64,000 nucleotides of DNA, from assembly GCA_041674105.1 (NCBI GenBank), contig JBAYWK010000003.1:11971-75970 (forward strand), given 5' to 3'. The position numbers were made by a program, and so were the translations under genes. Below the pieces are notes generated by a model. The model was not told where the DNA came from and ran no database searches. It saw nothing but the letters and a program-made list of their open reading frames with translations. The DNA is from Minisyncoccota bacterium. Lineage in GTDB: Bacteria > Patescibacteriota > Minisyncoccia > Phycocordibacterales > DATDWN01. Below, in pieces: positions 11,540-60,461 of this stretch; position 1 is the stretch's first letter, and the number at the start of each line of letters is the position of its first letter.

Positions 11540-11544
11540 CAGTT

Positions 11545-12126
11545 CTAAAACAGACTTTGAGTCTTTACTTCCAAAACAGGTTCCCAGTGTTTTGTATCTA
11601 GTTTTATTTCTTTTGTGAAAGGTCCTTCTTTGAAAATGAGTTTTTTGTTTTTCATTGCATACTCGTAGACATCTTTGGTAATTTTTACATCATCTAGACA
11701 ATATTTTCTTATCTTATCTATCTCACCCTTTTTCCACCAAACCACAGCTTCTAGGCCGTTTGCACTTTTATGTGATCCAAAAGTTCCTTCGGCAATTTGA
11801 TCCAGCTTCATTCTGCGACCATAAGTGTTTTTTATTTCTTTCAAGATATCCAACGATCTTATCTGGTTTAAATCTCCTAAACCAGCTTTCTTGTAGTATT
11901 TATTTAAAAGAGGAATGTCAAAGTGATCTCCATTGTAAGTAATAAATAAATCTGCTTTTCCGATTATTTCCCACATTCCCCCAAACTCCTCTTGTGTAAA
12001 ACTTGCATAAGAATTTGTTTCGTAATCATAAAGTCCGACAATAGATATGTCCAAATCTACAGGATCATTTGAACCAACATCTTGAAATATATTTTTAGTT
12101 TCTATATCAAATACAATCTTACGCAT
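11545..12126 (-). CDS. RNase H-like fold 3'-5' exonuclease domain protein (PolB-exo/YprB-like)
   Basis: Exo I-like FDIET, then YNGDHFDIP and a downstream acidic motif. Size about 190 aa. Confidence 0.5.
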   Translation of the reverse strand: MRKIVFDIETKNIFQDVGSNDPVDLDISIVGLYDYETNSYASFTQEEFGGMWEIIGKADLFITYNGDHFDIPLLNKYYKKAGLGDLNQIRSLDILKEIKNTYGRRMKLDQIAEGTFGSHKSANGLEAVVWWKKGEIDKIRKYCLDDVKITKDVYEYAMKNKKLIFKEGPFTKEIKLDTKHWEPVLEVKTQSLF

Positions 12127-13477: not shown

Positions 13478-14236
13478 ATGACCAATATACAAGAAGATAA
13501 TATCCATTTGGCCTATAAAAATACCGGAGAAACACCAAAAGAGTGCTTAGAAAGGTATAAATCCGAAAATCCTAATCTAGAGAGCGTTCCTATGACATAC
13601 GCTGGCAGGCTAGATCCAATGGCCGAAGGGGTTTTAATTTTACTTTCAGGAGAAGCCATAGAAAAAAAAGAAGATTTTTTAGATCTTCCCAAAACTTATG
13701 TGTTTGAAATATTGTGGGGAGTAAAAACTGATACAGGAGATGTTCTTGGTCTTATCGATAAAGAAGAAGAAAAAATTCCAAAAGAAGAAGATGTTAGAGG
13801 TGTCTTGGAAAAAAGTTTAGGCGATTTTATTCAAAAATATCCAGCTTATTCTTCAAAACCAGTAAATGGAAAACCTCTTTTTCTTTGGGCTAGAGAAGGG
13901 AAGCTTGAGGAAATAGAAATTCCAGAACATGAAGTCTCTCTGTATAGAGCAAGGTTTTTAGAAAGAAAAGAAATTGATTCCATTCTTTTATTAAAAGAAA
14001 TAAAAGAAAAGATAGGTAAAGTTAAAGGTGATTTTAGACAAGAAGAAATAATTTCAAAGTGGAGTGATTTATTTGAAGATAAGAAAAGTAGATTTACTAT
14101 TGATAAAATTGAAGTTGAGGTTTCTTCTGGTTTCTACATAAGACAGTTTACAGAAGATTTAGCAGAAAAACTTAGTACAGTTGCCTTGACAAGTCATATA
14201 TTACGAACAAAAGTTGGGAATTACGAAGCCTTGTAA
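13478..14236 (+). CDS. truB: tRNA pseudouridine synthase (TruB family)
   Basis: Catalytic Asp motif YAGRLDPMAEGVLILL (GTLDPxAxG-like). Confidence 0.75.
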   Translation: MTNIQEDNIHLAYKNTGETPKECLERYKSENPNLESVPMTYAGRLDPMAEGVLILLSGEAIEKKEDFLDLPKTYVFEILWGVKTDTGDVLGLIDKEEEKIPKEEDVRGVLEKSLGDFIQKYPAYSSKPVNGKPLFLWAREGKLEEIEIPEHEVSLYRARFLERKEIDSILLLKEIKEKIGKVKGDFRQEEIISKWSDLFEDKKSRFTIDKIEVEVSSGFYIRQFTEDLAEKLSTVALTSHILRTKVGNYEAL

Positions 14237-46160: not shown

Positions 46161-47450
46161 ATGAAGAAATATATTAAAAGATTATTCCGATACGAGGCTT
46201 CTTTAGTGCTTAAAAAATATAAACCAAAAATAATCGTCATTATTGGTAGTGTTGGGAAGACTAGTACAAAGGAGATGGTTTACAGTGCCTTGTCTCAAAA
46301 ATATTTTATTAGAAAGAATGAAAAAAGTTTTACAGCCAGTCTTGGTATACCTTTGGTTATTATAGGTGGTGTATTTGGTAGAGGTTCTTTATTTGATTGG
46401 TTAAAAAATTTATTTAGAGGTTTTATCTTAATTATTAAGAAAGTTAAATATCCAGAGTATTTAATACTTGAAGTAGATAACGATAAGCCGGGTGATTTAA
46501 AAACTGTAAGTGAGATGCTTTCTCCTGATCTGGTGGTTATGACAAGCATAGGTGATATGCCAACTCATGTAGAGGTTTTTGGCTCTAAAGAAAAGGTTTT
46601 GAAAGAGTATGATGATTATTTAAAATCTCTAAAACCAGAATGTAAGATTATTTACAATAAAGACGGTGAAGTTGTACGCTCCCTAATAGAAAATAAAGAT
46701 TTTGAAAAAATATCTATTACTATAGATGGTGAAGGTAATATAAACGCAGATAATAGAAAATTTTTGTATGGTAAAAATGACGGAATGAATATCTTGACCG
46801 GAGTGTCTTATGACATCGGCAGAGGAGATGAAAAACAAAATATAATTATTTTTGATTCTATTGGTATACATAGTAAGTATGCGACACTGCTTGCTTGTGG
46901 GGTCGGGATTTTTTTAGGTATACCTTTTCTAAAGAGTGTTTCTTTGCTCTCAAAATATAAAGTCTTACCCGGAAGGATGAAAATTATTTCTGGAATAAAA
47001 AATACTACTATAATAGATGATTCTTACAATTCTTCTCCTGTGGCTATGAACGAAAGTCTAAATACATTTAGTAGACTAGATATTTCAGGTAAAAAGATTG
47101 TGGTTATTGGAGATATGTTGGAGTTAGGAAAATATTCTGGAGAAGAGCACAAAAAACTTGCTCATAAAATAAAAGACATAGCGGATGTTGTCATTTTTGT
47201 TGGCATAAGGACTAGACTGACAGGTGAAGAGCTTCTAAATCTGGAATATCCAAAAGAAAATATTTTCTATTTTGACGATTCAGAAAATGCTGGTAAATTT
47301 TTACAAAATTATATTCAAAAAGGGGATTGTATTCTAGTAAAAGGTTCTCAGGCTATGAGAATGGAAAAAACTGTAGAAGAAATAATGCGTCATCCCGAAG
47401 ACAAAAAAACCCTGTTAGTTCGCCAAGAGCAAGAGTGGCGGAGGAGATAA
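46161..47450 (+). CDS. murF: Mur ligase family protein, probable UDP-MurNAc-pentapeptide synthetase MurF. The last ~20 codons are GC-rich foreign sequence.
   Basis: GSVGKTSTKE P-loop, Mur ligase middle and C-terminal domains. GC jumps at about 47395. Confidence 0.7.
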   Translation: MKKYIKRLFRYEASLVLKKYKPKIIVIIGSVGKTSTKEMVYSALSQKYFIRKNEKSFTASLGIPLVIIGGVFGRGSLFDWLKNLFRGFILIIKKVKYPEYLILEVDNDKPGDLKTVSEMLSPDLVVMTSIGDMPTHVEVFGSKEKVLKEYDDYLKSLKPECKIIYNKDGEVVRSLIENKDFEKISITIDGEGNINADNRKFLYGKNDGMNILTGVSYDIGRGDEKQNIIIFDSIGIHSKYATLLACGVGIFLGIPFLKSVSLLSKYKVLPGRMKIISGIKNTTIIDDSYNSSPVAMNESLNTFSRLDISGKKIVVIGDMLELGKYSGEEHKKLAHKIKDIADVVIFVGIRTRLTGEELLNLEYPKENIFYFDDSENAGKFLQNYIQKGDCILVKGSQAMRMEKTVEEIMRHPEDKKTLLVRQEQEWRRR

Positions 47451-47508
47451 AGAAAAACCGCCCGAGTTCTCTGCACAACTTGGTGCGGAGATCTCAGACG
47501 GTTTAGAG

Positions 47509-48357
47509 CTAATTGCGATCGGCGTTGACAGTCAGGTTTCCCTGCTCGTCCTCATCTACCCGAAGGTTTTTGTATCCCTCCATTTTGGCGAAGACGTTAC
47601 CGTCTTTGCCAATGGTTAGTCGGAACCTTCTGGTCCGAGTTGGCGGCTGTTTCTCCGGCTCCTCGTTTTGAGGAGGAGTTACTGGAGGAGTCTGTGGTTG
47701 TACAGGTGCAACCAGTGGCATCAGTTGGACTGGAGTTGGTCGCGGTGTTAGCGGTGCCGGAGTCGGAGCAGGAGTTGGTGGAGTCGGCCTAAGAGGACGT
47801 CTACCTTCTCTCCGGTTCTGGATTACTCGGTAGACTGCGTATCCAAGCAAGGCCAGAAGAGCCATAAACAGAAGTAAGGGGATCAGAGATCCCAAAATTT
47901 CTGCAAGTCCTCCCCAGGAACGTCCCATGGCATTTTTGAAACGCCCCCATGCAGATAGTGGAGCGTGTTCATTACCAGATATATTGGAATACGTTACCGT
48001 GCTGGCGACTTCTTCCACAGGCTTTGGGACCTCCACCAACCTGTTTCCGCAGTCCGCTTTGTAGCGGATTGTGCCAGTGGTGTCCACGAGGACTATTGTG
48101 TTTGCTGGAAGTGTCTCCAGGACAAACCGTCCTTTGTTGTCGCGAAGCCCGCGGAAGTGGTTTTGAACCACAATTGCCTTCCGTAGGAAATGAGGCGCGA
48201 GCCGCATTTCGGCCTGCTGTCGTGTCGACAGCGGACCGGAAACGACGGGGAACTTGTCCATTTCAGCATCCGCTGGAATGGTGAACTCTCCACGTTGTGC
48301 GAATACTGGCAAAGCCAGCATCGCAAAAAAGATTGCAAAAAACCAAACTTTCTTCAT
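47509..48357 (-). CDS. GC-rich secreted/membrane proline-rich protein (282 aa)
   Basis: Signal peptide, a second TM, and a PTPPTPAPTPAPLTPRPTP low-complexity region. About 55% GC. Confidence 0.5.
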   Translation of the reverse strand: MKKVWFFAIFFAMLALPVFAQRGEFTIPADAEMDKFPVVSGPLSTRQQAEMRLAPHFLRKAIVVQNHFRGLRDNKGRFVLETLPANTIVLVDTTGTIRYKADCGNRLVEVPKPVEEVASTVTYSNISGNEHAPLSAWGRFKNAMGRSWGGLAEILGSLIPLLLFMALLALLGYAVYRVIQNRREGRRPLRPTPPTPAPTPAPLTPRPTPVQLMPLVAPVQPQTPPVTPPQNEEPEKQPPTRTRRFRLTIGKDGNVFAKMEGYKNLRVDEDEQGNLTVNADRN

Positions 48358-48493
48358 TCTATCTCACTTTCTGTCAAACTAACTATCTAAACGCTATTAT
48401 AACATATTCCTCTAAAAAAGCAAGTATTTTGTAGGATTACTATGCACTAAATCCTTGTATAAAACACAAAAAAATGGTTAATATATGTGTATT

Positions 48494-48565
48494 GGCCTTA
48501 TCGTCTAACGGTTAGGACGAAGCCTTCTCAAGGCTTAAATCGGGGTTCGATTCCCCGTAAGGTCA
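48494..48565 (+). tRNA. tRNA-Glu (anticodon CTC)
   Basis: Acceptor GGCCTTA/TAAGGTC, D-arm GTCT/GGAC, anticodon stem AAGCC/GGCTT with loop TTCTCAA, T-arm CGGGG-TTCGATT-CCCCG. Confidence 0.85.
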
Positions 48566-48670
48566 CAAGTAGACCCATCTTCTGATAGCTTTTGAATAAA
48601 TTCATGCAGTTGCTTGTTTTATTGTATTTTTTAAAGAAATATGACATATTTTGTGAGGAAGGAGGTTCTC

Positions 48671-49090
48671 ATGGGCGAACAATTTTGGAATTTTAATTGC
48701 AGGTATTGTGGTCGGCACTTGAAACTGACTGTACAAGAAAATAACCTTGGAAACAAAGTCGAAGTTCTTTGCCAGGGTTGTGGTCAACAGACATCTACAA
48801 TCATAGGCACAATAGAAAAGAGGGAAAATGTGGATCTACCTCTAGAAGTAAAACAAAAAATAGAAAAATTAACTAAAGAGATTCAAGAAAATTCAGATAT
48901 TCTTAATCTTGTTGAATCAATCTGGCAAGACGGATTTAGTTTAATGCTTGCCGTTGGGGTGTATGAAAATAGATTCAATAATGAAACTATTTTTATTCCG
49001 AAAGTTGATAGTGATGGAAAAATCACTGATGGAACTTTCACTGAAACAGATGAAGAAGCTTTTCGCAAAGCGTTCAGGATCAAACTCTGA
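48671..49090 (+). CDS. Zn-ribbon (CxxC x2) protein, hypothetical (starts MGEQ)
   Basis: CRYCGRH...CQGCGQ. Strong SD AGGAGGT 5 nt upstream. GC-rich. Confidence 0.45.
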   Translation: MGEQFWNFNCRYCGRHLKLTVQENNLGNKVEVLCQGCGQQTSTIIGTIEKRENVDLPLEVKQKIEKLTKEIQENSDILNLVESIWQDGFSLMLAVGVYENRFNNETIFIPKVDSDGKITDGTFTETDEEAFRKAFRIKL

Positions 49091-49191
49091 TACGCTGCTC
49101 TCAAAGCCGACAATTAGAGCAATCCATTCCGGATTGCTCTTTCTTTTTAATGCAAAAAGTGTAATATTGGGGACGGAAAGGGTACATAGAT

Positions 49192-49446
49192 ATGATCTGG
49201 CAAGATGTTGTAATGATGATCGGGCAATTTGTGTTTTTCGTTGCCATGATACCGACAGTCAAAGCTGTCGAAAAACCGGCGTTCTCAACTTCTCTGGTGA
49301 CCTCAGCGGTCATCACTCTTTATATTCCAACTCTCTGGACACTTCACCTCTATGTGTCAGTTGTTTCTACCATCCTACTCGCTTTCGCTTGGTGGACGGT
49401 GACCTACCAGAGTTGGAAGAGAAGTCAGCTGGCCGCCAACTCCTAA
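49192..49446 (+). CDS. Small membrane protein (84 aa, 2-3 TM)
   Basis: Hydrophobic, RBS GAAAGGG, GC-rich. Confidence 0.4.
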   Translation: MIWQDVVMMIGQFVFFVAMIPTVKAVEKPAFSTSLVTSAVITLYIPTLWTLHLYVSVVSTILLAFAWWTVTYQSWKRSQLAANS

Positions 49447-49477
49447 TAAAGATTCGCCAAAAACGGCAAAACTAAAT

Positions 49478-49512
49478 ACTCGTCACTACCTTCAGCGACG
49501 AGTTTTCTTTTT
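49478..49512 (+). terminator. Rho-independent terminator
   Basis: ACTCGTC...GACGAGT followed by TTTCTTTTT. Confidence 0.55.
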
Positions 49513-49552
49513 AAAACATCGAGGATTTTGACAGTGGGGAAATTAGGGGTAC

Positions 49553-49582
49553 TTGACTTTTGTATACAAAGTGTGCTATAAT
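49553..49582 (+). promoter_or_regulatory. Promoter module A: TTGACT-18-TATAAT with the palindrome TTGTATACAA in the spacer
   Basis: ACTTGACTTTTGTATACAAAGTGTGCTATAAT, near-identical to 50859-50890 and to the minus strand at 61339-61372. Confidence 0.6.
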
Positions 49583-49600
49583 TAAGGGTAGGAGGTGTTC

Positions 49601-49897
49601 ATGGGACAAGCAGAAGTTGATTTAAATGGTGGAGTCACCATTGTTAAAATCGGAGGGAAGCCATTCGAAACTGTCATCGATAAGCAAGGAATTCAGAGGT
49701 TTAAGACCGACAGACTGATAAACTCTTTGTATGAAATCGGTAGTATTGACCTCAATCAACTTGCGGTTCAATACCAGCGCGGGGCATTCACTCAGGAGGA
49801 ATATCTAAGGTTTTATACCGGTATCGGGTGTTCCGTGACCGGCTTATATGACCTTCCTTTTTTTCTCGATTTGGAGATCGAGAATCCGCTATGGTAA
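49601..49897 (+). CDS. Small hypothetical protein beginning MGQAEVDLNGG (98 aa)
   Basis: Strong SD GGTAGGAGGT. GC-rich. Start re-set to ATG 49601. Confidence 0.5.
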   Translation: MGQAEVDLNGGVTIVKIGGKPFETVIDKQGIQRFKTDRLINSLYEIGSIDLNQLAVQYQRGAFTQEEYLRFYTGIGCSVTGLYDLPFFLDLEIENPLW

Positions 49898-49905
49898 CCA
49901 ACCGT

Positions 49906-49942
49906 AAAACCGCTCGCGCCAAGAGGTGTCGAGCGGTTTTTT
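49906..49942 (+). terminator. Terminator module T1
   Basis: AAAACCGCTCGCGCC-aaga-GGTGTCGAGCGGTTTTTT. Near-identical to 50805..50842. Confidence 0.7.
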
Positions 49943-49990
49943 ACAAACCTAAATTTTTTTATCTTCCCTCAAATTTCACCAAAAAACCCT
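49943..49990 (+). repeat. About 45-nt cassette-junction motif, copy 1 (ACAAACCTAAATTTTTTTATCTTCCCTCAAATTTCACC...)
   Basis: Recurs at 51371..51417 with about 90% identity, each time between a terminator and the next gene's promoter. Confidence 0.45.
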
Positions 49991-50056
49991 TTACTTATTG
50001 ACTTTTATATTGTTTAAATATAGGATGTTTTACGGAGTTTTTGAAAGGAGAGCGCG

Positions 50057-50782
50057 ATGTCGCCTGAAGAAAAACAACAAGGAGATTGGTGGGGTAAGTT
50101 TTTTGGTAAAATCATCACGAGTATTATCGTCTTGCCTATCATCATGTGGATCTGGCCGGATGTAGTGCCTTTCGGATTCTTCCAGCTCTGGAAAGTCGAG
50201 GGTACAATGAGCCAGTGGCTCATTTCTTCATGGCCTATATTTGTGTGGGGAGCCGGAGTTACTCTCGTGCATGGTTTCTTCACTCGTAATGAGAGGCACA
50301 TAAATCGTAATGCAGAGCTTATAATCAAAGAAGGTGCTATTGTCAGCATCATTGCAGGGGTTGGAGAGGAGATCACTTTTAGGTGGCTATTCTTCCTTGA
50401 CAATATTGTTTCTGTAAAGATTGCAAACTGGTTCTTTTTTGGTTTTATTGGGTTTGGAATCCCAGCGTGGTTCCATATGTATATTGTTGGACCCATTGCT
50501 AACTGGTTCACTCTTGGGGAACTCGAATCTTTTATTTTCCACTCGACTGGATGGGCCGTAGGGGCAGCGATGCTCACAACGAATGCATTCTTTCGGGACG
50601 GTCATCGATATTTGGGTTTTCTAGGTTTCGTGAATAGCTGGTTTTTGGGAATGTTTCTTTTTTGGATTATGTTCAAGTACGGATTACTTGCAGCGATTCT
50701 TATTCACTTCACTTATGATTTTCTCATCTACCTCGTTCATTATGTAGATTCGGCAATCGAAAGGGCGATGGGATACGCGTAG
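50057..50782 (+). CDS. CPBP-family (CAAX protease / Abi) intramembrane metalloprotease
   Basis: Polytopic membrane protein with GEEITFRWLFF (EExxxR), FHSTGW (FxxxH) and ILIHFTYDF (HxxxD/N) motifs. Confidence 0.7.
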   Translation: MSPEEKQQGDWWGKFFGKIITSIIVLPIIMWIWPDVVPFGFFQLWKVEGTMSQWLISSWPIFVWGAGVTLVHGFFTRNERHINRNAELIIKEGAIVSIIAGVGEEITFRWLFFLDNIVSVKIANWFFFGFIGFGIPAWFHMYIVGPIANWFTLGELESFIFHSTGWAVGAAMLTTNAFFRDGHRYLGFLGFVNSWFLGMFLFWIMFKYGLLAAILIHFTYDFLIYLVHYVDSAIERAMGYA

Positions 50783-50804
50783 TACCGGCTCCTGTCAGTA
50801 ATTC

Positions 50805-50842
50805 AAAAACCGCTCGCACCAAAAGGTGCCGAGCGGTTTTTC
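50805..50842 (+). terminator. Terminator module T2
   Basis: AAAAACCGCTCGCACC-aaaa-GGTGCCGAGCGGTTTTT. Confidence 0.7.
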
Positions 50843-50860
50843 TTATATAAAAATAGACAC

Positions 50861-50890
50861 TTGACTTTCGTATACAAAATGTGCTATAAT
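50861..50890 (+). promoter_or_regulatory. Promoter module B (TTGACT-18-TATAAT, spacer palindrome TTCGTATACAAAA)
   Basis: ACTTGACTTTCGTATACAAAATGTGCTATAAT, then GTAGGAGGT SD and ATG 50911. Confidence 0.6.
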
Positions 50891-50910
50891 CAAGTGTAGG
50901 AGGTTTTTTT

Positions 50911-51318
50911 ATGTCCAACGCTCCCTTATATGAAGGGTTGGAATACAACTTGACGCTCTCTTTCAGCCACCTCTATGGTGACAAGTGGGCCGCTTTCTAT
51001 GGAAAAGAGACCCCTTACCAAAGGCGTCGGATCATCTTTCCTCAGTTCACCCCTGAGGAAGGGAAAGAGTATGCCGTGCGAGTGAAGGTAACAAAGACAG
51101 GAATCTTTACCTATAAAGGTGAAGACTTCCAAGTCTGCAGAGCCGAGCTCGCTGAGGCCGCTACCAAGGGTGAGGTTCTTGTTCATCAGATGTTTAATGG
51201 GCGAGAACCAATGACAGAGATTGGGCTAGCAATGCAAAGAGCGGGAGTTGGGAGTGCAGTCAGTACTGCTCTGGCTGACCAACTCAGGGCTGCCGGTTTC
51301 CGCCAGAGTCGGAAGTAA
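50911..51318 (+). CDS. Hypothetical protein (135 aa), GC-rich
   Basis: Driven by module B, strong SD. No recognisable motifs. Confidence 0.5.
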   Translation: MSNAPLYEGLEYNLTLSFSHLYGDKWAAFYGKETPYQRRRIIFPQFTPEEGKEYAVRVKVTKTGIFTYKGEDFQVCRAELAEAATKGEVLVHQMFNGREPMTEIGLAMQRAGVGSAVSTALADQLRAAGFRQSRK

Positions 51319-51334
51319 CACCGGACAATTTCAT

Positions 51335-51370
51335 AAGGTCGCGCGGATAATCGCGTGACCTTTTCTTTTT
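51335..51370 (+). terminator. Rho-independent terminator T3
   Basis: AAGGTCGCGCG-gataat-CGCGTGACCTT followed by TTCTTTTT. Confidence 0.7.
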
Positions 51371-51417
51371 ACAACCTAAATTTTTTATCATCCCTCAAAT
51401 TTCACCCAAGCTAATTA
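51371..51417 (+). repeat. Cassette-junction motif, copy 2 (ACAACCTAAATTTTTTATCATCCCTCAAATTTCACC...)
   Basis: See 49943..49990. Confidence 0.45.
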
Positions 51418-51429
51418 ATGAATTTCTCA

Positions 51430-51458
51430 TTGAAAAAACCCTAAAAAGGGAGTAGAGT
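51430..51458 (+). promoter_or_regulatory. Putative promoter of the MazG/DUF2075 cluster (TTGAAA-17-TAGAGT). ATG only about 12 nt downstream, so the mRNA may be near-leaderless.
   Basis: TTGAAA 51430-51435 and TAGAGT 51453-51458. No canonical SD before ATG 51470. Confidence 0.35.
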
Positions 51459-51469
51459 TATTGGTAATT

Positions 51470-51817
51470 ATGAGTAATATTAAAGATTTAACAAAAAGGA
51501 TTATAGTTTTTAGAGATGCTAGAGACTGGAAACAATTCCACAATCCAAAAGACCTCGCTTTGTCTTTGGTTTTAGAAGCAACAGAAGTCATGGAACATTT
51601 CCAATGGAAAAATAAAGAGGAGATGGAAGAACATCTAAAGACACACAAAGAAGACGTGGCAGACGAACTTGCTGATACATTATATTGGATTTTATTAATG
51701 GGAAATGATTTTAATATTGATGTTCTAAAAGCCTTAGATAAAAAACTAAAAAAAATTGAAGAAAAATATCCAGTAGAAAAAGCCAAAGGGAGGCATACTA
51801 AGTATAACAAGCTGTAA
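51470..51817 (+). CDS. MazG-like nucleoside-triphosphate pyrophosphohydrolase (small all-alpha NTP-PPase)
   Basis: FRDARDWKQFHNPKDLALSLVLEATEVMEHFQW ... ELADTLYWILLMGNDFNIDV is the MazG/YpjD-like signature. Stop 2 nt before the next gene. Confidence 0.7.
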   Translation: MSNIKDLTKRIIVFRDARDWKQFHNPKDLALSLVLEATEVMEHFQWKNKEEMEEHLKTHKEDVADELADTLYWILLMGNDFNIDVLKALDKKLKKIEEKYPVEKAKGRHTKYNKL

Positions 51818-51818
51818 C

Positions 51819-53858
51819 ATGTCTCAGATCAAATCTTTTAAATTTGATAAAAATAGCTTCAATGAAATCAGAGCCTATCGTTTTGGAAAGAATTGGCCTG
51901 TTGTTTATGTCTTGGAGAATGGTAAAGATGTTTATGTTGGTCAAGCAATAAATGCACATAGGAGACTTAAGCAACATAACGAAAATACAGAAAAACAAAT
52001 ATTGAAATTAAAAACAGCTCATATTTTAAGTGACGATGAATTCAATGTGTCGGCGGCGCTCGATATTGAGTCTTGGCTTATTCAATATATGTCTGCAGAT
52101 CAAGTTTTTACTTTGCATAATAAAAATGGTGGATTAAAAAATCACAACTATTATGATCGACCAAAATATAAAGCAAAATTCGAAGATATCTGGAAGCAAT
52201 TTTTAGAGATGGGGATTGCAAAAAGCACCCTTGAAGATTTAAAGAACACTGACTTATTTAAATATTCACCATACAAATCTCTAACAGAGGATCAGCTTTT
52301 CGTTGCTCGTAAAATTTTTAAAGATCTTAAGTTCGGAAAATCACAATCATATATTGTAAACGGTAGACCAGGAACAGGGAAAACAATTCTTGCCACTTAT
52401 CTTTTTAAATTTTTAAAAGAACAAGATGAGACGAAAAATTTGAAAATGGTACTAGTTGTACCGATGACTTCTCTTAGAACAACAATTAAAAAAGTTTTTG
52501 GGAAAATAAAAGGCCTTAGTAGTTCTATGGTGATTGGCCCAAACGACGTTGCTCGAGGTATCTACGATCTTATAATCGTTGACGAAGCTCACCGGTTACA
52601 GAGAAGAAAAAATATTATGGGTATGGGTGCGTATGATCAAGTTAATACAAGATTAGGTCTTCCAAAAGAAGCGACAAATCTGGATTGGATAATGAAATGT
52701 TCAAAAAATCAAATATTTTTCTATGACGAAAACCAAAGTATAAAACCAGCAGATGTAAGAAAAGAAGATTTTAAGAAACTTAACGCACAGTACTACACAC
52801 TTTCTACTCAAATGCGTGTTGAAGCTGGCGAAGAATATATAGAATTCATTGAAGCATTATTTGATTTGCAAAAGCCAATAAAAACAAATTTTGAAAATTA
52901 TGATTTTAAAATCTACGACAATGTAGAAGAAATGGTTTCTGCTATTAGAGAAAAAGATAAAAAGCACGGGCTTTCTCGTGTTGTTGCTGGATATGCTTGG
53001 CCTTGGCATACAAAGTCCGGATCAAAATCAAAACAAAAATATGATATTGAAATAGGAAATTATAAAGGTATTTGGAATTCTACTGCGACAGACTGGGTTA
53101 ATTCACCAAATGCTATAAATGAAGTTGGTTGCATTCATACAGTCCAAGGTTATGACTTAAATTACATTGGAGTTATTATTGGTCCAGAGTTTGGTTACGA
53201 TATAGAAAATAAAAAATTTTTTGTTGATAGAGAAAAATATCTAGACAGAAACGGCCGAGCGGGAATTCAAGATCCAAAAGAACTTGATGGTTATATAAAA
53301 AATATTTATAAGACTATTCTTACTCGTGGAATAAAAGGAACTTATGTCTATATCGTTGATGAAAATTTAAGAAAATATTTTAAAGAAAAATTGAGAGAGT
53401 CTAAGGAAGACGATATAAAATTAGATTTGAATGAGTTATATGGTGGAAAAGAAGTAGTCTCTCCTTTTACAACAGAAATGATCAGTGTACCTTTGGTAGG
53501 TTCAGCCCCATGTGGGAATCCACTTTTAGGGGAAGAGAATATCGAGGAGTATATTGAAGTTGAAAAAAATAAAATTAAACCAGGAGCAAAATATTTTATA
53601 GTTAGAGCCGAAGGCGATTCTATGAATAAAGCCGGGATTAATGATCAGGATTTAGTATTGTGTCGTTTCTCAGAAAAAGGTGAAACTGGAGATAGAGTTG
53701 TTGCTTTACTTCAGGGTGAGAATGTGACAATAAAATATTATGACAAAAAAGATGGTCGTAGAATATTACTACCAAAAAGTACAAATCCAGAACATCAGCC
53801 GATTATTCCACAAGAAGGAGATGTTGTTCAAGGAATTGTTCAAGAAGTTTTAAAATAA
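51819..53858 (+). CDS. Three-domain fusion: N-terminal GIY-YIG nuclease, central DUF2075-like P-loop ATPase/helicase, C-terminal LexA/UmuD-like S24 self-cleaving peptidase
   Basis: GIY-YIG: VVYVLENGKDVYVGQAINAHRRLKQH. Walker A NGRPGTGKT, Walker B IIVDEAHR, SRVVAGYAWPW. C-terminus PLVGSAPCGNPLL...FIVRAEGDSMNKAGINDQDLVL...VVALLQGENVTIKYY aligns with LexA/UmuD; Ser601 TCT at 53619-53621, Lys639, Cys565-Gly566 at 53511-53516. Confidence 0.75.
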   Translation: MSQIKSFKFDKNSFNEIRAYRFGKNWPVVYVLENGKDVYVGQAINAHRRLKQHNENTEKQILKLKTAHILSDDEFNVSAALDIESWLIQYMSADQVFTLHNKNGGLKNHNYYDRPKYKAKFEDIWKQFLEMGIAKSTLEDLKNTDLFKYSPYKSLTEDQLFVARKIFKDLKFGKSQSYIVNGRPGTGKTILATYLFKFLKEQDETKNLKMVLVVPMTSLRTTIKKVFGKIKGLSSSMVIGPNDVARGIYDLIIVDEAHRLQRRKNIMGMGAYDQVNTRLGLPKEATNLDWIMKCSKNQIFFYDENQSIKPADVRKEDFKKLNAQYYTLSTQMRVEAGEEYIEFIEALFDLQKPIKTNFENYDFKIYDNVEEMVSAIREKDKKHGLSRVVAGYAWPWHTKSGSKSKQKYDIEIGNYKGIWNSTATDWVNSPNAINEVGCIHTVQGYDLNYIGVIIGPEFGYDIENKKFFVDREKYLDRNGRAGIQDPKELDGYIKNIYKTILTRGIKGTYVYIVDENLRKYFKEKLRESKEDDIKLDLNELYGGKEVVSPFTTEMISVPLVGSAPCGNPLLGEENIEEYIEVEKNKIKPGAKYFIVRAEGDSMNKAGINDQDLVLCRFSEKGETGDRVVALLQGENVTIKYYDKKDGRRILLPKSTNPEHQPIIPQEGDVVQGIVQEVLK

Positions 53859-53879
53859 AGTCTGATATATAAGTTAGCC

Positions 53880-54599
53880 ATGGAAGAAAATATAATTAAA
53901 AAAGAATTTCCTGGTAATAGAAAAGATATTTCACCGCGGCATGTAGTAGATGAAAACAAAAAAGATGATTTGCAAACATTTTTTCTGATTCTTGGACTCA
54001 TTTTTAATGATTTAAAAGGGTTAATATTTTTTCAAAAAACTATAGAGGATAATTATAGAAAGCCAAATATTGATGAAACTTCTGTGCATGCCGGAGAATA
54101 TAATGGTTTGATAGCTCAAGCGGATAAATTACTTATTGCAACTGTAGGAGAATTTTTCAAATTTATTGAAAAAAATAAGTTTGTATTGAATAGCATGCCT
54201 TTTAAATTACTTCTTAAGAAAAATAATAATCAGGATTATAAAAATAAGTGGAATGATCTTGTTAGATTAGATGATGGATCTTCTATATTATCAAAAATTT
54301 CACGAGTTAGATCAAATGTAGCTTTTCATTACGATAATTCAATGGAAGAATTAAGAAGAGGTTTTATAAATAGTTTTTATTTGAAAGAAAAAGATTTAGT
54401 CCAACATAAACGAGCTTTTTATTCTTTAGGAAATGATATGGAAAATACTAGAATATATTATTCAGATGCTGCTACACAAAGTTATATAAATTCTCTTATT
54501 GGTATTGATGATAGAGAAAAAATCATGGGAGCTATAAAGAATATGAACTATACAATCCAATGGTTGTTAAAAATATATTTAGATAGTGTTAAAAAATAA
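53880..54599 (+). CDS. Hypothetical protein (239 aa), co-transcribed partner of the fusion protein
   Basis: 22-nt gap after the upstream gene, AT-rich like its neighbours. No recognisable motifs. Confidence 0.5.
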   Translation: MEENIIKKEFPGNRKDISPRHVVDENKKDDLQTFFLILGLIFNDLKGLIFFQKTIEDNYRKPNIDETSVHAGEYNGLIAQADKLLIATVGEFFKFIEKNKFVLNSMPFKLLLKKNNNQDYKNKWNDLVRLDDGSSILSKISRVRSNVAFHYDNSMEELRRGFINSFYLKEKDLVQHKRAFYSLGNDMENTRIYYSDAATQSYINSLIGIDDREKIMGAIKNMNYTIQWLLKIYLDSVKK

Positions 54600-54675
54600 T
54601 TAAGTATATAAACTAAATGTGAATTGATGAAATTCCATTTTTCACTCTTTATAAAAAGTAATGTAAAATAAATTT

Positions 54676-55107
54676 ATGAACAATAAAGATTTATATTTTG
54701 TGGCGGTAAAGGTTTTTATGGAAAAAGATGGAAAACTTTTGATTATGAAAGATAATTTTGGATGTTGGGATTTACCGGGAGGAAGAATTAAATTAGATGA
54801 ATTTGAGACATCTTTGGACGATATTATCAAAAGAAAAATGAAGGAAGAGCTGGGAGAAAATATTGAATACGAAATTGGCAAGCCTGTGATTTTTATGCGC
54901 CATGAAAGAATCGAAAGTTCGCCAGGGAATCCTACTGTTAGGATTTTTGCTGTAGGATATGAAGGAAAATTGTTGGGTGGTGAGATAAAACTTTCGGAAA
55001 GACATACCGAAATGCTTTGGGTAGATCCAGATAATTTCAAACCGGAAGATTATTTCACAGGAGGTTGGCTTAAAGGAGTAAAGGAATATTTAAATTTGAA
55101 AAAATAA
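54676..55107 (+). CDS. NUDIX hydrolase
   Basis: Nudix box GGRIKLDEFETSLDDIIKRKMKEELGENI (Gx5Ex7REUxEExGU). Confidence 0.8.
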   Translation: MNNKDLYFVAVKVFMEKDGKLLIMKDNFGCWDLPGGRIKLDEFETSLDDIIKRKMKEELGENIEYEIGKPVIFMRHERIESSPGNPTVRIFAVGYEGKLLGGEIKLSERHTEMLWVDPDNFKPEDYFTGGWLKGVKEYLNLKK

Positions 55108-55111
55108 ACCT

Positions 55112-55642
55112 ATGGAAAAGCAACCACAACAATTTGATATTGAAAATAGTCCAATGAAGGAAGCTTATAATTTGATTGGTGCAAATAGTCCTAAAGAGTT
55201 AGATAGTCTATATAATAAAGCAGACCAAGAACTGATGAAGTCAAAAGAGTGGGATTATAATAATCCCGATCTAGTTACAAATAGAATAAAAAATATTATT
55301 GAAAATATTGACAAGAATTTACTGACAGAAGAAGAAAAAGACTGGAGGCAAATGATACTTTGGTTTTGGTACCACCACGCTATGAGTGTGGCAATAGGTC
55401 TATTTGGAGATAAAGAAAAAGCAAAAGAATTTGGTGCAAAAGCAATGGAGCTTAACCCTAAAGATAACAGTAATAAAATTACTGAGATTTATTATTTGCT
55501 TTTGAATGATAATCTGGCCAAAGCAGAGGATCTAGTCGGCTCTATCCCAGAAGGACTTCTTGATGATGGAAATCCAAATCCAGAACCACAAACCGCAAGA
55601 GAACTGATTGAAGAATACAAACAAGGTTTGTTTGGGGTTTGA
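55112..55642 (+). CDS. Hypothetical protein (176 aa), 5-nt gap after NUDIX
   Basis: ORF with tight operon spacing. Acidic, predicted helical. Confidence 0.5.
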   Translation: MEKQPQQFDIENSPMKEAYNLIGANSPKELDSLYNKADQELMKSKEWDYNNPDLVTNRIKNIIENIDKNLLTEEEKDWRQMILWFWYHHAMSVAIGLFGDKEKAKEFGAKAMELNPKDNSNKITEIYYLLLNDNLAKAEDLVGSIPEGLLDDGNPNPEPQTARELIEEYKQGLFGV

Positions 55643-55681
55643 ATAAATGGAAAATTATCTAAAAAATGATATTGTGGATTT

Positions 55682-55825
55682 ATGGAAAAGGAATTAAAGA
55701 TTAAAACGCCGGACAAAAAATTGATTTATGGATCTTTTGTTTCTGCTGGTAAAAAGTCTGATAAACTTGTGATTTTTGTTCATGGATTTACTGGTCACAA
55801 AAATGAACACATATTTTTCTCCTGA
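55682..55825 (+). pseudogene. Truncated alpha/beta-hydrolase N-terminal fragment (47 codons)
   Basis: MEKELKIKTPDKKLIYGSFVSAGKKSDKLVIFVHGFTGHKNEHIFFS then stop. HGFTGH is the typical start of an alpha/beta-hydrolase fold. No catalytic core follows. Confidence 0.4.
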
Positions 55826-55980
55826 CAAGCTTTTTTGGTAGATGCTATTTGACTAAACTCTATGGTTTTTCCTTCATCAATTTTGTAATTTCCCAATAAA
55901 TTATTACAGTCAGTTGTTGCTGAAAAATGACCATCTTGTGTAAATGAGAGGACAAAATCTTCTGCTTTATTTGGTGTCAC
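55795..55980 (-). pseudogene. META (HslJ-like) domain fragment, in frame with upstream MliC but separated by two stop codons
   Basis: DCNNLLGNYKIDEGKTIEFSQIASTKKAC matches the META-domain core. GTG start. Stops at 56029-31 and 56017-19 in the shared frame. Confidence 0.4.
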
Positions 55981-56028
55981 TATTTTATTATTTGAATAAA
56001 GAGTTCTTTGGCATTACTACTCTGTATT

Positions 56029-56403
56029 CTATAGAGACATATCTAGTGTTCCTTCACCACCTTTTAAGAGTGGGGCATCTTGAAATACCATTTGACCATC
56101 TATTTCTAAACTAGCTGTTCCTTGATGTTCCCAAAAAATGACTGACTCATTGGGAGAAGTATATCTTGCTCCAGAGCCAGATATAGCTACGTTTAGTTCG
56201 TATTTTTTATTATCAAAGATAACTTCGGCTTTGCTAGAGTCGTTATTATATTGAATAGTAAATTCTTTGCCTGCATCTGCAAAAGTAAAGACATCACTTG
56301 TGTAAGCTATTTTTTCTGCATTGTTTTTTGATGTGAGCCAAAAATAGCCTGCACCTAATAAGATTATAATCACGACTGCAATAAGTAAGTTTTTTGTATT
56401 CAT
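56029..56403 (-). CDS. MliC/PliC-family lysozyme inhibitor, membrane anchored
   Basis: N-terminal TM, then ISGSGARYTSPNESVIFWEHQGTASLEIDG (SGSGARYT...FW...G signature). Confidence 0.6.
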   Translation of the reverse strand: MNTKNLLIAVVIIILLGAGYFWLTSKNNAEKIAYTSDVFTFADAGKEFTIQYNNDSSKAEVIFDNKKYELNVAISGSGARYTSPNESVIFWEHQGTASLEIDGQMVFQDAPLLKGGEGTLDMSL

Positions 56404-56953: not shown

Positions 56954-56981
56954 GGTCGGCACGCTTTGTGCCGACCTTTTG
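56954..56981 (+). terminator. Rho-independent terminator
   Basis: GGTCGGCAC-gcttt-GTGCCGACC followed by TTTT. Confidence 0.7.
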
Positions 56982-56994
56982 TTATAATAAAAAT

Positions 56995-57693
56995 ATGAAG
57001 TCAGAAGACATTGTAAGAGATTTAAATAAATTAAAAAATAAAGAAAAAGCTAAAACTTCTTCTGGTTTCTTTAAGACAAAGAAAGGACAGTATGGGTATG
57101 GTGATAAATTTTTGGGAATCACTGTGCCAGAGCAAAGAAAAATTGCTAAAAAATATAAAGAATTAAAACTTTCTGAAATCCAAGAACTTTTAAAATCTCC
57201 TATACACGAAAACCGGTTTACCGCTTTGGAAATTTTGGTTATGAAATATGAGAACTCCCAAAATAAGGAAAAAGAAAAGATAGCTAAATTTTATTTAAAA
57301 AATACAAAAAATATAAATAATTGGGATTTGGTAGACGCATCAGCAAGCTATATTTTGGGAGATTTTTTGTATAAAAAAGACAGAGGAGTGCTTTACAAGC
57401 TAGTAAAGTCTGAAAATCTATGGGAGAGAAGAATTGCTGTAGTTTCTACATATTATTTTATAAAAAGAGGGGATTTTAAAGACATAATAAAATTGTCAGA
57501 AATTCTTTTAAAAGATAAGCACGATCTTATCCAAAAAGCTGTCGGCTGGATGCTACGCGAAGCCGGTAAGAGAGATCAAAAAGTTTTACTTTCTTTTTTA
57601 GACAAAAATCACAAAGAAATGCCTAGAACCATGCTTAGGTATTCTTTAGAAAAACTAAGTACTAAACAGAAAAATTTTTATATGAAAAAATAA
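56995..57693 (+). CDS. AlkD-like HEAT-repeat DNA alkylation-repair glycosylase family protein
   Basis: NWDLVDASASYILG and QKAVGWMLREAGKRD are characteristic of the DNA_alkylation family. Start re-set to MKSEDIV. Confidence 0.7.
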   Translation: MKSEDIVRDLNKLKNKEKAKTSSGFFKTKKGQYGYGDKFLGITVPEQRKIAKKYKELKLSEIQELLKSPIHENRFTALEILVMKYENSQNKEKEKIAKFYLKNTKNINNWDLVDASASYILGDFLYKKDRGVLYKLVKSENLWERRIAVVSTYYFIKRGDFKDIIKLSEILLKDKHDLIQKAVGWMLREAGKRDQKVLLSFLDKNHKEMPRTMLRYSLEKLSTKQKNFYMKK

Positions 57694-57743: not shown

Positions 57744-60461
57744 ATGGAAAAGTACAATCAAAATTCTTTTAATTCTCCAGAAGATGAAATAAATTTTTTG
57801 CGAGAACAAATAGCTCAAAAAGAAAAGGAACTTTCGGAAAAAAACTATTCTGTAGATAAAAAACTTGTAGTCCAAGAACAAATTTCCAAGTACAAAAATA
57901 CTCTGTCAGAGGAGGTTTTAGATAAAGATTATAAGATTTCAGAAGACGACTTGGAGTCTTTTAAGCTCAAACTTTCTCCAGATCATCACGATAAAAAGAT
58001 AAAAGAACTTGTCGGTATTATGAATGAAAAAGGTATACACAATGCCCTTTCTGTTTTGTCTGGGTTGAAAGATCCGCATTTAGAGGACGATTTTCATAGA
58101 TTTTTAGTTCAATATTTTTCAGATGATAGGAAAGTAAAAGGTCTAAAGTCAAAAGAAGGTCTGTCTAGGGGTATAGGAATGAAACTATATGAGTTTGTAT
58201 TGCCGGACGAAGAGGAGGGTGAAAAAACAAAAACTCTAAAAGAAATAATCTCTGGTATGGAGCAGTTTTACTCTGGAATGCTTTCTATTTATTCAAAGAA
58301 ATCACAAAGTCATATCGTTATAGAGATAGCCAATGCAAATGACAGCGACCAGTTTGTTTTTTATGTGGCAGTACCAAAAGAGCACACAGACCTTTTTGAA
58401 AAACAAATAATATCTATTTTCCATAATGCCAGACTTACTGAGGTTGTGGATGATTACAATATTTTCAATGAAGATGGTATTTCTCTGGGCTCATACGCTG
58501 AGCTGAAAGAGAGTCCTGTTTATCCTATTAAAACATACGAGAATTTTGACCATGATCCAATGAATGTTATCTTGAATAGTTTCTCAAAAATAGAAAAAGA
58601 AGGAGAAGGTGCAGCATTACAAATCGTTTTGGCTCCACAAGGTGATTATTTTAATGATAAGTATTCTTTTGCTATAGACCAAATAGAAAAAGGGGCTGAT
58701 GTCAAAAAAGCAGTTTCCATGAAAGAATCTTTTGCAGGAGACCTTGGAAAAGTTTTAAAAGATTTGTTTAAAGCTCCAAAAGAAGAGGAAAAAAAAGAAA
58801 TAGATACTAATGCTATAGAAAAGATAAAAAGAAAAATAAGTGCTCCAATTTTAGCTACAAACATAAGAATCATTGCTTCAAGTAGGAATAGGTTGGGAGC
58901 GGAGAAGATCCTGAAAGAAATAGAATCTAGTTTCAACCAGTTTACTGATACAAACTCCAATGCTATAAAATGGCAAAGGCCAGAAAAAAAACCTTTGCAA
59001 AGGCTTTTTAGAGATTTTTCTTTTAGACTATATAATCCAACTCAGTTGGTTCCTCTAAATATTCACGAAATCAATACTATTTCTCATTTTCACACAACAA
59101 GGCTCTCACCAAACCCTCAACTCAGAAAAACTCAGTACGCCGAGGTTCCACCACCAAGTGAAATATCAAGTGCGGGAACTCTTTTAGGAATTAATTCCTA
59201 TAGAAATACTGACACAAAAATAAATATTTTGGATGAAGATAGGCTGAGACATTTTTATACCATTGGTCAGACGGGTACAGGAAAATCTACCCTACTAAAG
59301 AATATGATTATTCAGGATATAAAAAATGGTCACGGGGTCTGTATGATAGACCCTCATGGTATAGATATGATGGATATTATGGCCAACATTCCGAAAGATA
59401 GGTTTAATGATGTTATTTATTTTGATCCTAGTTATATAGAAAGACCTATGGCTCTAAATATGCTTGAGTACGATCCTCGTTTTCCAGAACAAAAAACTTT
59501 TGTGGTCAATGAGTTATTTAGTATTTTTCAAAAACTATATGGTGGTGCGCCAGAGTCTATGGGACCTATGTTTGAACAATATTTTAGAAACGCTACTATG
59601 CTTGTCATAGAAGATCCAGAAACAGGTTCTACTCTATTAGATGTTTCTAGGGTGATGTCCGATAAAACTTTTAGAGATCTAAAAATTTCTAGATGTAAAA
59701 ATCCTGTGGTAGTTGAGTTTTGGAAAGAAGTAGCAGAGAAAGCTGGTGGGGAAGCGACCTTAGCAAACATCGTACCGTACATCACAAGCAAGTTTGATGT
59801 CTTTTTGGCAAATGAAATAATGCGTCCGATAATTGCCCAAGAAAAGTCTTCTTTCAATTTTCGAGACATAATGGATAATAGAAAAATTCTTTTGGTAAAC
59901 CTTTCCAAAGGAAGACTTGGAGATATAAATGCAAACCTCATAGGACTTATTTTGGTCGGTAAAATACTAATGTCTGCTCTTTCTAGAGCCGATATTATTG
60001 GAAAAGATTTTCCACCGTTTTACCTTTATATAGACGAGTTTCAAAATGTAACTACAAATTCTATTTCTACTATTTTGTCTGAAGCTAGAAAATATAAACT
60101 TTCTCTAAATATTGCTCATCAGTTTATTGCGCAACTTGAAGAAGGTATAAGAGATGCTGTATTTGGGAATGTCGGCTCAATTGTTTCATTTAGGGTAGGT
60201 GCAGAAGATGCAGAGTATTTGGAAAAACAGTTTGCCCCAGTTTTTACAGCTCGCGATATTATGAATATAGACAATAGAAATGCTTATGTAAAAATGCTTA
60301 TTGCAGGTAGGCCGGCCAAAGCTTTCAATATGAAAACACTGCCTCCTCCAGAGGGAAATCCAAGTATAGTAGGTGCTCTAAAACAACTTTCCTACTTTAG
60401 TTATGGTGGAAATAAGGAAGAGATAGAAGCGGATATTTTGAAGAAATATAAGAAAAGGTAA
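57744..60461 (+). CDS. Large P-loop ATPase of the TraG/TraD/VirD4 (type IV coupling protein, TrwB/DUF87-like) type with a ~480-aa unknown N-terminal region
   Basis: Walker A FYTIGQTGTGKST, Walker B YLYIDEFQNV, and a C-terminal ARKYKLSLNIAHQFIAQL motif like TraG-D_C. Confidence 0.55.
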   Translation: MEKYNQNSFNSPEDEINFLREQIAQKEKELSEKNYSVDKKLVVQEQISKYKNTLSEEVLDKDYKISEDDLESFKLKLSPDHHDKKIKELVGIMNEKGIHNALSVLSGLKDPHLEDDFHRFLVQYFSDDRKVKGLKSKEGLSRGIGMKLYEFVLPDEEEGEKTKTLKEIISGMEQFYSGMLSIYSKKSQSHIVIEIANANDSDQFVFYVAVPKEHTDLFEKQIISIFHNARLTEVVDDYNIFNEDGISLGSYAELKESPVYPIKTYENFDHDPMNVILNSFSKIEKEGEGAALQIVLAPQGDYFNDKYSFAIDQIEKGADVKKAVSMKESFAGDLGKVLKDLFKAPKEEEKKEIDTNAIEKIKRKISAPILATNIRIIASSRNRLGAEKILKEIESSFNQFTDTNSNAIKWQRPEKKPLQRLFRDFSFRLYNPTQLVPLNIHEINTISHFHTTRLSPNPQLRKTQYAEVPPPSEISSAGTLLGINSYRNTDTKINILDEDRLRHFYTIGQTGTGKSTLLKNMIIQDIKNGHGVCMIDPHGIDMMDIMANIPKDRFNDVIYFDPSYIERPMALNMLEYDPRFPEQKTFVVNELFSIFQKLYGGAPESMGPMFEQYFRNATMLVIEDPETGSTLLDVSRVMSDKTFRDLKISRCKNPVVVEFWKEVAEKAGGEATLANIVPYITSKFDVFLANEIMRPIIAQEKSSFNFRDIMDNRKILLVNLSKGRLGDINANLIGLILVGKILMSALSRADIIGKDFPPFYLYIDEFQNVTTNSISTILSEARKYKLSLNIAHQFIAQLEEGIRDAVFGNVGSIVSFRVGAEDAEYLEKQFAPVFTARDIMNIDNRNAYVKMLIAGRPAKAFNMKTLPPPEGNPSIVGALKQLSYFSYGGNKEEIEADILKKYKKR

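Follow-up and report, generated by a model that had tools for sequence, protein, structure and literature searches.

A nuclease-helicase-protease fusion and its MazG-like partner

The stretch of DNA analyzed here (hereafter the window) comprises 64,000 nt of contig JBAYWK010000003.1 from a Minisyncoccota bacterium (assembly GCA_041674105.1), and the subject of this work is a pair of adjacent genes on its + strand, the first encoding a MazG-like protein and the second a 679 aa protein in which a GIY-YIG nuclease domain, a DUF2075 helicase/ATPase, and a LexA/UmuD-type Peptidase S24 domain are joined in one polypeptide. The initial annotation had placed the pair in a cluster of five co-directional open reading frames (ORFs), and all five are present (51470-51817, 51819-53858, 53880-54599, 54676-55107, and 55112-55642, all +). 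The gaps it listed between them (2, 22, 77, and 5 nt) are coordinate differences, and the true intergenic gaps are 1, 21, 76, and 4 nt.

The three-part composition proposed for the 679 aa protein was borne out by Pfam profile searches. The SLFN-g3_helicase/DUF2075 family (PF09848) matches residues 177-514 at 6.7e-70 (236.6 bits) and Peptidase_S24 (PF00717) matches residues 558-666 at 3.3e-20 (72.4 bits, cut-off 23.3). The GIY-YIG match (PF01541) is marginal at 6.2e-5 (23.6 bits, cut-off 22.6, residues 29-65); in distant homologs the match is full-length and scores 26-31 bits, and the GIY-YIG residues Y30, Y39, G41, R49, H53, E84, and N101 do not vary even in homologs of 36% identity. Also invariant in homologs are the Walker A (G185-T189, GTGKT) and Walker B (D255-E256, DE) residues of the helicase. 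Taken over all three domains, the catalytic residues are invariant in 34 close homologs and, down to 36% identity, are either invariant or kept in 13/14 sequences. We generated an AlphaFold2 model of the protein (predicted local distance difference test, pLDDT, 77.5) and searched its folds with Foldseek. The modeled helicase matches the superfamily 1B (SF1B) enzymes nsp13, Upf1, RecD2, Dda, and SLFN11, and the modeled S24 domain matches the C-terminal domain of E. coli LexA (TM 0.71-0.73, 34% identity); the linker between the two is disordered over residues 528-550.

The initial annotation had likened the C-terminus to LexA and UmuD and had singled out Cys565-Gly566, Ser601, and Lys639, and the same residues emerged when the protein was aligned by HMMER with E. 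coli LexA (7b5g, E 1e-12; Table 1). The Gly-to-Ser spacing is 35 residues and the Ser-to-Lys spacing 38, versus 34 and 37 in LexA. Among relatives of 36-71% identity, the S24 serine is invariant while the lysine and the Ala/Cys-Gly pair are each found in 13/14, and the sole relative without the lysine (P0173) also lacks the scissile Ala/Cys. Sequence and model therefore confirm that the tail has the S24 fold, the Ser-Lys dyad, and the Ala/Cys-Gly site by which the self-cleaving S24 family is recognized; self-cleavage itself is predicted. The fold, dyad, scissile bond, and spacing are those of LexA, UmuD, and lambda CI, and the RecA-stimulated self-cleavage chemistry of these proteins is presumably shared as well. 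In contrast, the part that precedes the cleavage site is a nuclease-helicase of 565 residues, as opposed to a helix-turn-helix (HTH) domain in LexA and CI or a 24-residue arm in UmuD. The protein also scores below the cut-offs of both NCBIfam families, i.e., 74 bits (1.2e-20) against an equivalog cut-off of 110.95 for LexA (TIGR00498, matched over profile positions 77-198 only, its C-terminal half) and 55.9 bits against 110 for UmuD (NF007621), and no Y-family polymerase that could be a umuC partner was identified among the genes examined within ~6 kb. No second S24/LexA gene and no other MazG or DUF2075 copy was found elsewhere in the 64-kb window. In one related locus (L004), a separate Peptidase_S24 gene was seen at 13816-14022, some 6 kb away from the fusion; its 188 aa product is truncated where the locus ends and may be the organism's own LexA-like protein.

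The start of the MazG-like gene was set at ATG 51470 rather than at TTG 51461 because homolog alignments begin at that residue. Its identification in the initial annotation was correct: the product matches PF12643 (2e-15, 57.2 bits, cut-off 27), PDB entry 4qgp (7e-18), and mouse and human dCTP pyrophosphatase 1 (DCTPP1; 1e-14 to 3e-10), aligning with the latter over its full length and with the same metal-binding motifs. These motifs (ExxE...ExxD) and an RDWxQFHxPK...ELADV...KYP signature are kept in 33/33 MazG partners examined, which identifies the partner, at the level of sequence, as a DCTPP1/RS21-C6-type enzyme. Mammalian DCTPP1 prefers 5-modified dCTP, a preference established for the mammalian enzyme only, and modified deoxynucleoside triphosphates (dNTPs) may be the substrate here. 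Unlike mammalian DCTPP1, the window protein is bacterial, only 115 aa long, and encoded in an operon with a nuclease-helicase.

A strong terminator belonging to the upstream gene marks the 5' boundary of the two-gene operon, and a promoter-like site follows it (Table 1). A pattern resembling TTG(T/A)AAAA ... (TG)nGGGA(T/A)A(G/A)T recurs in many related loci (numbered with the prefix L) at the equivalent place 5' of the MazG gene; in the form TTG(T/A)AAAA-N-(TG)TGGGA(T/A)A(G/A)T it ends ~10 nt 5' of the ATG in the window (51430-51469) and in L002, L005, L006, L008, L010, L012, L020, L022, and L024. This suggests near-leaderless transcripts and a promoter that travels with the gene pair. No SOS-box-like palindrome was seen when the regions 5' of the operon were aligned, a comparison that did not extend to the LexA motif published for Patescibacteria, and such a lack would fit control at the protein level, i.e., after translation.

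Table 1. Positions of the features of the gene pair (window coordinates, except in the last row).
Feature	Position	Strand	Basis or remark
Intrinsic terminator of upstream gene (50911-51318)	51335..51362	+	12-bp stem, 7 GC pairs, T-run
Promoter-like site TTGAAA-17 nt-TAGAGT	51430..51458	+	~11 nt 5' of ATG, very short leader
MazG-like all-alpha (d)NTP pyrophosphatase, DCTPP1/RS21-C6 type, 115 aa (conserved partner)	51470..51817	+	PF12643, PDB matches
GIY-YIG nuclease domain, residues 1-150 of the 679 aa protein	51819..52268	+	PF01541
SF1B helicase/P-loop ATPase core (DUF2075 = SLFN-g3_helicase), residues 151-520	52269..53378	+	PF09848
Flexible linker from helicase to S24, residues 521-555	53379..53483	+	pLDDT 34-36; length and sequence vary in homologs
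LexA/UmuD-type Peptidase S24 domain, residues 556-679, and stop codon	53484..53858	+	PF00717, TIGR00498, LexA alignment
Predicted scissile bond Cys565-Gly566	53511-53516	+	aligns with LexA Ala84-Gly85
Predicted nucleophile Ser601	53619-53621	+	aligns with LexA Ser119
Predicted general base Lys639	53733-53735	+	aligns with LexA Lys156
TspO/MBR genes in related loci	L002 4808-5203, L005 3623-4021, L007 5168-5563, L013 5235-5639, L022 8010-8408, ~7 more		

Distribution, pairing, and conservation

Homologs of the fusion protein form more than 120 clusters of 66-100% identity and ~670-700 aa in Paceibacteria, Nomurabacteria, Roizmanbacteria, and other Patescibacteria. We fetched 27 Patescibacteria loci around such homologs and searched them by tblastn with the five window proteins within 6 kb. 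The MazG-like gene lies immediately 5' of the fusion, with gaps of 1-6 nt, in 25 of the 27, so that the link between the two genes, already drawn in the initial annotation, holds well beyond this genome. The exceptions are L004, where a glyoxalase gene stands 5' of an intact fusion, and L027, where a decayed remnant at ~6001-6606 retains the last ~200 fusion codons with an in-frame stop and no MazG gene. The decayed copy indicates that the pair can be lost, and the flanks, mostly unrelated between loci, indicate that it moves as a unit with its promoter; together with carriage on plasmids, these features mark the pair as mobile and accessory.

To look further afield, 1.84 billion representatives clustered at 50% identity were searched, and 8379 relatives were retrieved at E <= 0.001. 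Most of the best 150 of these are 520-600 aa long and match only residues 1-525 or ~200-525 of the window protein, i.e., they consist mostly of a nuclease and a DUF2075 domain with no S24 domain, and ~17 of the 150 (~11%) reach into S24. Ten longer relatives (36-48% identity) all have the GIY-YIG, DUF2075, and S24 domains by Pfam, one of them being WP_064301751 of Pseudomonas putida, where the MazG-like gene and the helicase gene share a stop/start overlap. A MazG-like gene also precedes or adjoins the relative's gene in L029, the genes of S24-less nuclease-DUF2075 relatives, those of helicases of only 25-30% identity (contigs of IMG/VR included), and the DUF2075 gene of Bacillus cereus-group megaplasmids, where it is called a "nucleotide pyrophosphohydrolase". 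The idea of MazG as a partner specific to the S24 form was rejected, since S24-less relatives carry it too. Judged from these comparisons, the MazG-helicase pair long predates the S24 fusion and is far more widely distributed, and its occurrence without S24 indicates that the tail is an add-on regulator in a subset of cases rather than part of the core of the system, as had been supposed at first. A phage origin of the pair was likewise rejected, because annotated phage genomes gave only 4 weak matches and the 15 matching contigs of IMG/VR could represent prophages or parts of host genomes.

Local duplications were seen as well. On the Bacillus sp. PGP15 plasmid NZ_CP095875 (L052 1955-6581), an extra 686 aa "GIY-YIG nuclease family protein" and a MazG fragment lie between the MazG and DUF2075 genes, and in L033 (4001-7631) second and third DUF2075 ORFs sit directly 3' of the first.

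Conservation is spread unevenly over the two proteins. Amino-acid identity is 75-93% in the S24 tail and 62-79% in MazG where the helicase is only 32-57% identical, and in a sister branch (L020-L025) it is 80-93% and 64-79%, respectively, against 32-40% in the helicase. Recent recombination or transfer was rejected as the cause, since saturation at four-fold synonymous sites is equal in S24 (33-50% identity) and in the helicase; the S24 tail is therefore maintained by strong purifying selection, not by recent copying. Where present, it is under stronger purifying selection than the helicase, and MazG, too, is strongly constrained in this way. The opposite mosaic occurs in L002 (helicase 79%, S24 46% identity) and shows that modules have also been exchanged in an older shuffling. 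A variable DNA-handling body between two constrained parts is what would be expected if the body co-evolves with its targets while S24 contacts a conserved host factor, e.g., RecA, and MazG contacts a small-molecule substrate.

The N-terminal nuclease varies in kind. The proteins of the sister branch (768-774 aa, e.g., L022 5434-7758) have an unrelated ~260 aa N-terminal domain in place of GIY-YIG; no Pfam match was found for it, and an IDFV...ELKQW motif, its only clue, suggests a PD-(D/E)xK-like domain.

To see what company the pair keeps, 127 nearest-neighbor ORFs from 29 independent loci were surveyed. By Pfam, these include Fic (5), SocA/Panacea antitoxins (5), XRE-type HTH (4), TspO (4), NYN (3), HNH (2), and DUF2726 (2) proteins; by PADLOC, they include SoFic (2e-112), several candidate families, a MADS component, and a type I specificity subunit. 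Toxin-antitoxin (TA) and defense-type genes are therefore among the neighbors, which we regard as supportive but not decisive.

Possible function and rival explanations

The closest known relatives in plan are Nhi of Staphylococcus epidermidis and the Nhi-like proteins, which likewise combine an N-terminal nuclease and a DUF2075/SF1 helicase in a single polypeptide. Both Nhi and Nhi-like (Millman et al. 2022) are nuclease-DUF2075 proteins validated by experiment as anti-phage effectors, and phages escape Nhi-like by losing a DNA methylase (Stokar-Avihail et al. 2022), which makes modified DNA a likely target or sensitizer. Fusions of GIY-YIG or PD-(D/E)xK domains with DUF2075 have also been proposed as likely phage-attenuation factors (Lutz et al. 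2019). The Nhi-like N-terminus is PD-(D/E)xK-like, as in the sister branch, whereas the window nuclease is GIY-YIG and the whole protein gives no full-length match to the Nhi profile; Nhi and Nhi-like are moreover described as single-gene systems with neither a MazG partner nor an S24 tail, and an anti-phage activity of the window branch is putative. PADLOC 2.0 returned partial matches of the 679 aa protein to Nhi (2e-17, 60.8 bits, residues 142-383 against profile positions 171-377 of 470) and to AbiO (6e-16), both over residues 142-383, the N-lobe of the helicase. Since all its matches were partial or to candidate families, assignment to a recognized defense system was rejected; PADLOC 2.0 has no model for a system of this kind. 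The defense-like reading of the initial annotation is accordingly upheld by the Nhi/Nhi-like architecture and by neighborhoods rich in TA and defense genes, but not by a full system match.

Two further comparisons are instructive. The helicase domain is homologous to that of eukaryotic Schlafen group 3 proteins such as SLFN11 (PF09848 and structural matches), with a conceptual link to killing or arrest upon replication stress; unlike them, the window protein has no Schlafen core (tRNA nuclease) domain, and its nuclease, regulation, and partner differ. In the CapH/CapP system, a separate metallopeptidase, CapP, cleaves a transcriptional repressor and so ties immunity to a DNA-damage signal by proteolysis. 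The likeness to that system is one of concept only, as the window has a serine autoprotease fused to the effector and its control would be post-translational and in cis. Automated annotations already list the domains of the fusion homologs, and in the literature searched we found no paper on DUF2075 with MazG, on Nhi with MazG, or on S24 fused to a helicase, nuclease, or defense protein. Each part is known, while no published description was found of the S24 fusion or of the pairing with MazG, in keeping with the initial annotation, to which no described defense system with this exact combination of domains was known.

Judged from the comparisons above, the conserved unit is a two-gene operon (51430-53858) with its own putative promoter, rather than five genes. 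We give an even chance to the reading that it is a mobile, Nhi-like system directed against phages or other mobile elements, controlled by S24, with MazG cleaning up modified dNTPs. The target of the helicase-nuclease would be foreign DNA, perhaps with modified bases, or intermediates of its replication, and the pyrophosphatase would hydrolyze non-canonical or modified dNTPs, either starving the invader or keeping such nucleotides out of host DNA. In this lineage, the second gene has acquired its autoprotease, joined on by a flexible linker, and the tail would couple the enzyme to the SOS signal, i.e., RecA bound to single-stranded DNA (RecA*), by self-cleavage at Cys565-Gly566, parting the enzyme (1-565) from the S24 dimerization module (566-679). 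We lean toward cleavage activating the enzyme, as in a pro-enzyme, since the cleaved 1-565 product resembles natural S24-less relatives. A more far-reaching version is tentative, and we hold it with clearly less confidence: MazG of the DCTPP1-like type and nuclease-DUF2075 may together form an unrecognized two-gene immune system found across phyla, whose pyrophosphatase works together with a modification-sensitive nuclease and takes modified dNTPs of the phage type as substrates, and whose S24 variant, a cleavable pro-nuclease-helicase, may be the first case of LexA-type, RecA*-stimulated autoproteolysis directly gating an effector enzyme rather than a transcription factor or polymerase subunit.

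Several points weigh against the defense reading. The role is drawn from the precedent of the Nhi architecture and from the neighborhoods. The fusion is unusually conserved in Patescibacteria (at least 66% identity across the more than 120 clusters), which is atypical for fast-evolving defense genes, and PADLOC does not match the MazG partner at all. The census of neighbors had no matched background control, many flanking genes are housekeeping genes (prfA, ftsEX, pyrG, uvrA, uvrB, guaB, and purA), and the P. putida copy has metabolic genes around it. Inhibition of the enzyme by S24 is hypothetical, and the linker is disordered in the model. The example of LexA and lambda CI also allows for cleavage that switches the enzyme off instead of on.

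The main rival outside defense is an SOS-linked DNA repair or fork-processing module, a Schlafen-11-like guardian for the small genomes of Patescibacteria, in which the helicase-nuclease would act on replication intermediates that are damaged or stalled, MazG would sanitize a damaged dNTP pool, and RecA*-induced cleavage during the SOS response would turn the enzyme on or off. The high degree of conservation and the strength of purifying selection would suit such a module, as would the uvrB and uvrA genes near the pair in L002, the AlkD-like enzyme encoded at 56968-57693 in the window, the standing of DCTPP1-family proteins as house-cleaning enzymes, the S24 domain being by definition an SOS-type sensor, and a fold resembling that of SLFN11, which acts at stressed forks. 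Nevertheless, we consider it unlikely, given that the distribution is patchy and non-syntenic, that one copy is pseudogenized and others are carried by plasmids and viral contigs, that the N-terminal nuclease domain is swapped, that TA and defense-type genes adjoin the pair, and that the closest architecture studied by experiment is anti-phage. Equally doubtful in our view is a defense system whose switch runs in the direction of LexA, where the uncleaved, S24-dimerized enzyme would be active and RecA*-induced cleavage would dismantle it, perhaps exposing a degradation signal, and would thereby spare host single-stranded DNA and repair intermediates during genuine DNA damage. In LexA, lambda CI, and related repressors, cleavage splits the functional domain from the dimerization domain and inactivates the repressor, and the LexA fragment ends in -VAA, an ending of the type that may serve as a ClpXP signal. 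The N-terminal product of relatives outside Patescibacteria would similarly end in -AAA or -VAA; however, an Ala-Ala-Gly context is shared by S24 cleavage sites in general and is not necessarily a degron, in Patescibacteria the last residues of the product would be -APC, and the 1-565 product equals in length and domains many natural S24-less relatives that are presumably active.

S24 domains dimerize and bind the groove of the RecA filament, and the tail might accordingly not cleave at all but act as a dimerization or filament-docking domain that recruits the nuclease-helicase to RecA-coated single-stranded DNA. The PDB matches, which include entries deposited as LexA repressor or DNA polymerase V subunit UmuD (8trg, 8gms, and 8gmt), and the high conservation of the whole domain, not just of its active site, are compatible with this idea, but the retention of the serine, lysine, and Ala/Cys-Gly described above speaks against it, and P0173 has lost Lys and Ala/Cys together, as expected under joint selection for cleavage; we regard it as improbable. 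Less probable still is the five-gene defense module of the initial annotation, in which the NUDIX protein (54676-55107), the 239 aa protein (53880-54599), and the 176 aa protein (55112-55642) would be co-effectors or antitoxins of the fusion. The genes are co-directional with short gaps, and no + strand terminator was found inside 51363-56200, so that co-transcription of all five is possible in this genome, which in itself is not a sign of functional linkage. The putative NUDIX protein matches PF00293 (1.1e-5, 25.9 bits, cut-off 21.1) and has an atypical box (GRIKLDE-x10-RKMKEELG, its spacer three residues longer than in the consensus GX5EX7REUXEEXGU and with RK for RE), and it has a weak match to a PADLOC candidate family (PDC-S07, 9e-7). 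A 93%-identical 239 aa gene was also found on a 16,257-bp contig, and the closest relative of the fusion (88%) is on a contig of equal size. Against all this, tblastn of the 27 related loci, among them loci of 82-86% identity, turned up no copy of these three genes at distances of up to 6 kb from the fusion. The 239 aa and 176 aa proteins belong to no Pfam family, and the 239 aa family is an orphan of 38 clusters confined to Patescibacteria, whose members of 69-73% identity lie in unrelated neighborhoods with no MazG, fusion, NUDIX, or 176 aa gene. The five-gene module is largely refuted, and the three genes are best read from these comparisons as local neighbors.

If the defense reading with S24 control is true, an effector would read the universal RecA* alarm directly through a fused autoprotease with no transcriptional step, a new logic in bacterial immunity. 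The pairing of DCTPP1-like pyrophosphatases with Schlafen-type helicases, very common and so far unexplained, would likewise acquire a role, and this may help to explain why nucleotide and replication stress involves DCTPP1 as well as Schlafen proteins in eukaryotes. In the hard-to-culture Patescibacteria (candidate phyla radiation), the pair is among the most conserved accessory gene pairs, and the P. putida and Bacillus plasmid homologs (the latter, e.g., NC_020394 H175_RS30570/30565) offer cultivable proxies. Candidate residues for mutation are C565/G566, S601, K639, K188, D255/E256, and R49/E84.

Genomic surroundings

The initial annotation described the cluster as part of an AT-rich mosaic island. 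Its GC content (0.27-0.385) is not unusual for a window with a background of ~0.33; what stands out is the block just 5' of it at 47000-51320 (47-51 kb), with a GC content of 0.41-0.44. This block, around and downstream of tRNA-Glu(ctc) (48494-48566), holds chiefly orphan ORFs, including those of a proline-rich 282 aa protein (minus strand) and an Rce1-like CAAX protease. The block, which may be foreign DNA that became integrated, stops at the terminator immediately 5' of the operon.

Other genes recur around the pair. Just 3' of the fusion, an HTH_3-SocA/Panacea antitoxin gene followed by a ~130 aa gene, likely a PanA-type toxin-antitoxin pair, was found in L021 (5574-6642), L011 (6122-7213), L008 (8361-9446), L006 (9222-10313), and the distant L029 (8112-9000). 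A 131 aa TspO/MBR gene of 60-80% identity recurs no more than a few kb from the pair, on either side and at differing positions (Table 1), and DoxX and cupin genes recur nearby in a few loci.

On the 3' side of the window cluster, the gene of the AlkD-like DNA alkylation repair enzyme (PF08713, 2e-65) and that of an MliC-type lysozyme inhibitor lipoprotein (56029-56403, - strand) follow directly. Beyond them, 57744-60461 encodes a 905 aa VirD4/TraG-like type IV coupling ATPase (T4SS-DNA_transf, TraG-D_C), and in L025 a homolog with 54% identity is likewise encoded ~2 kb 3' of the MazG-fusion pair (9748-12522).

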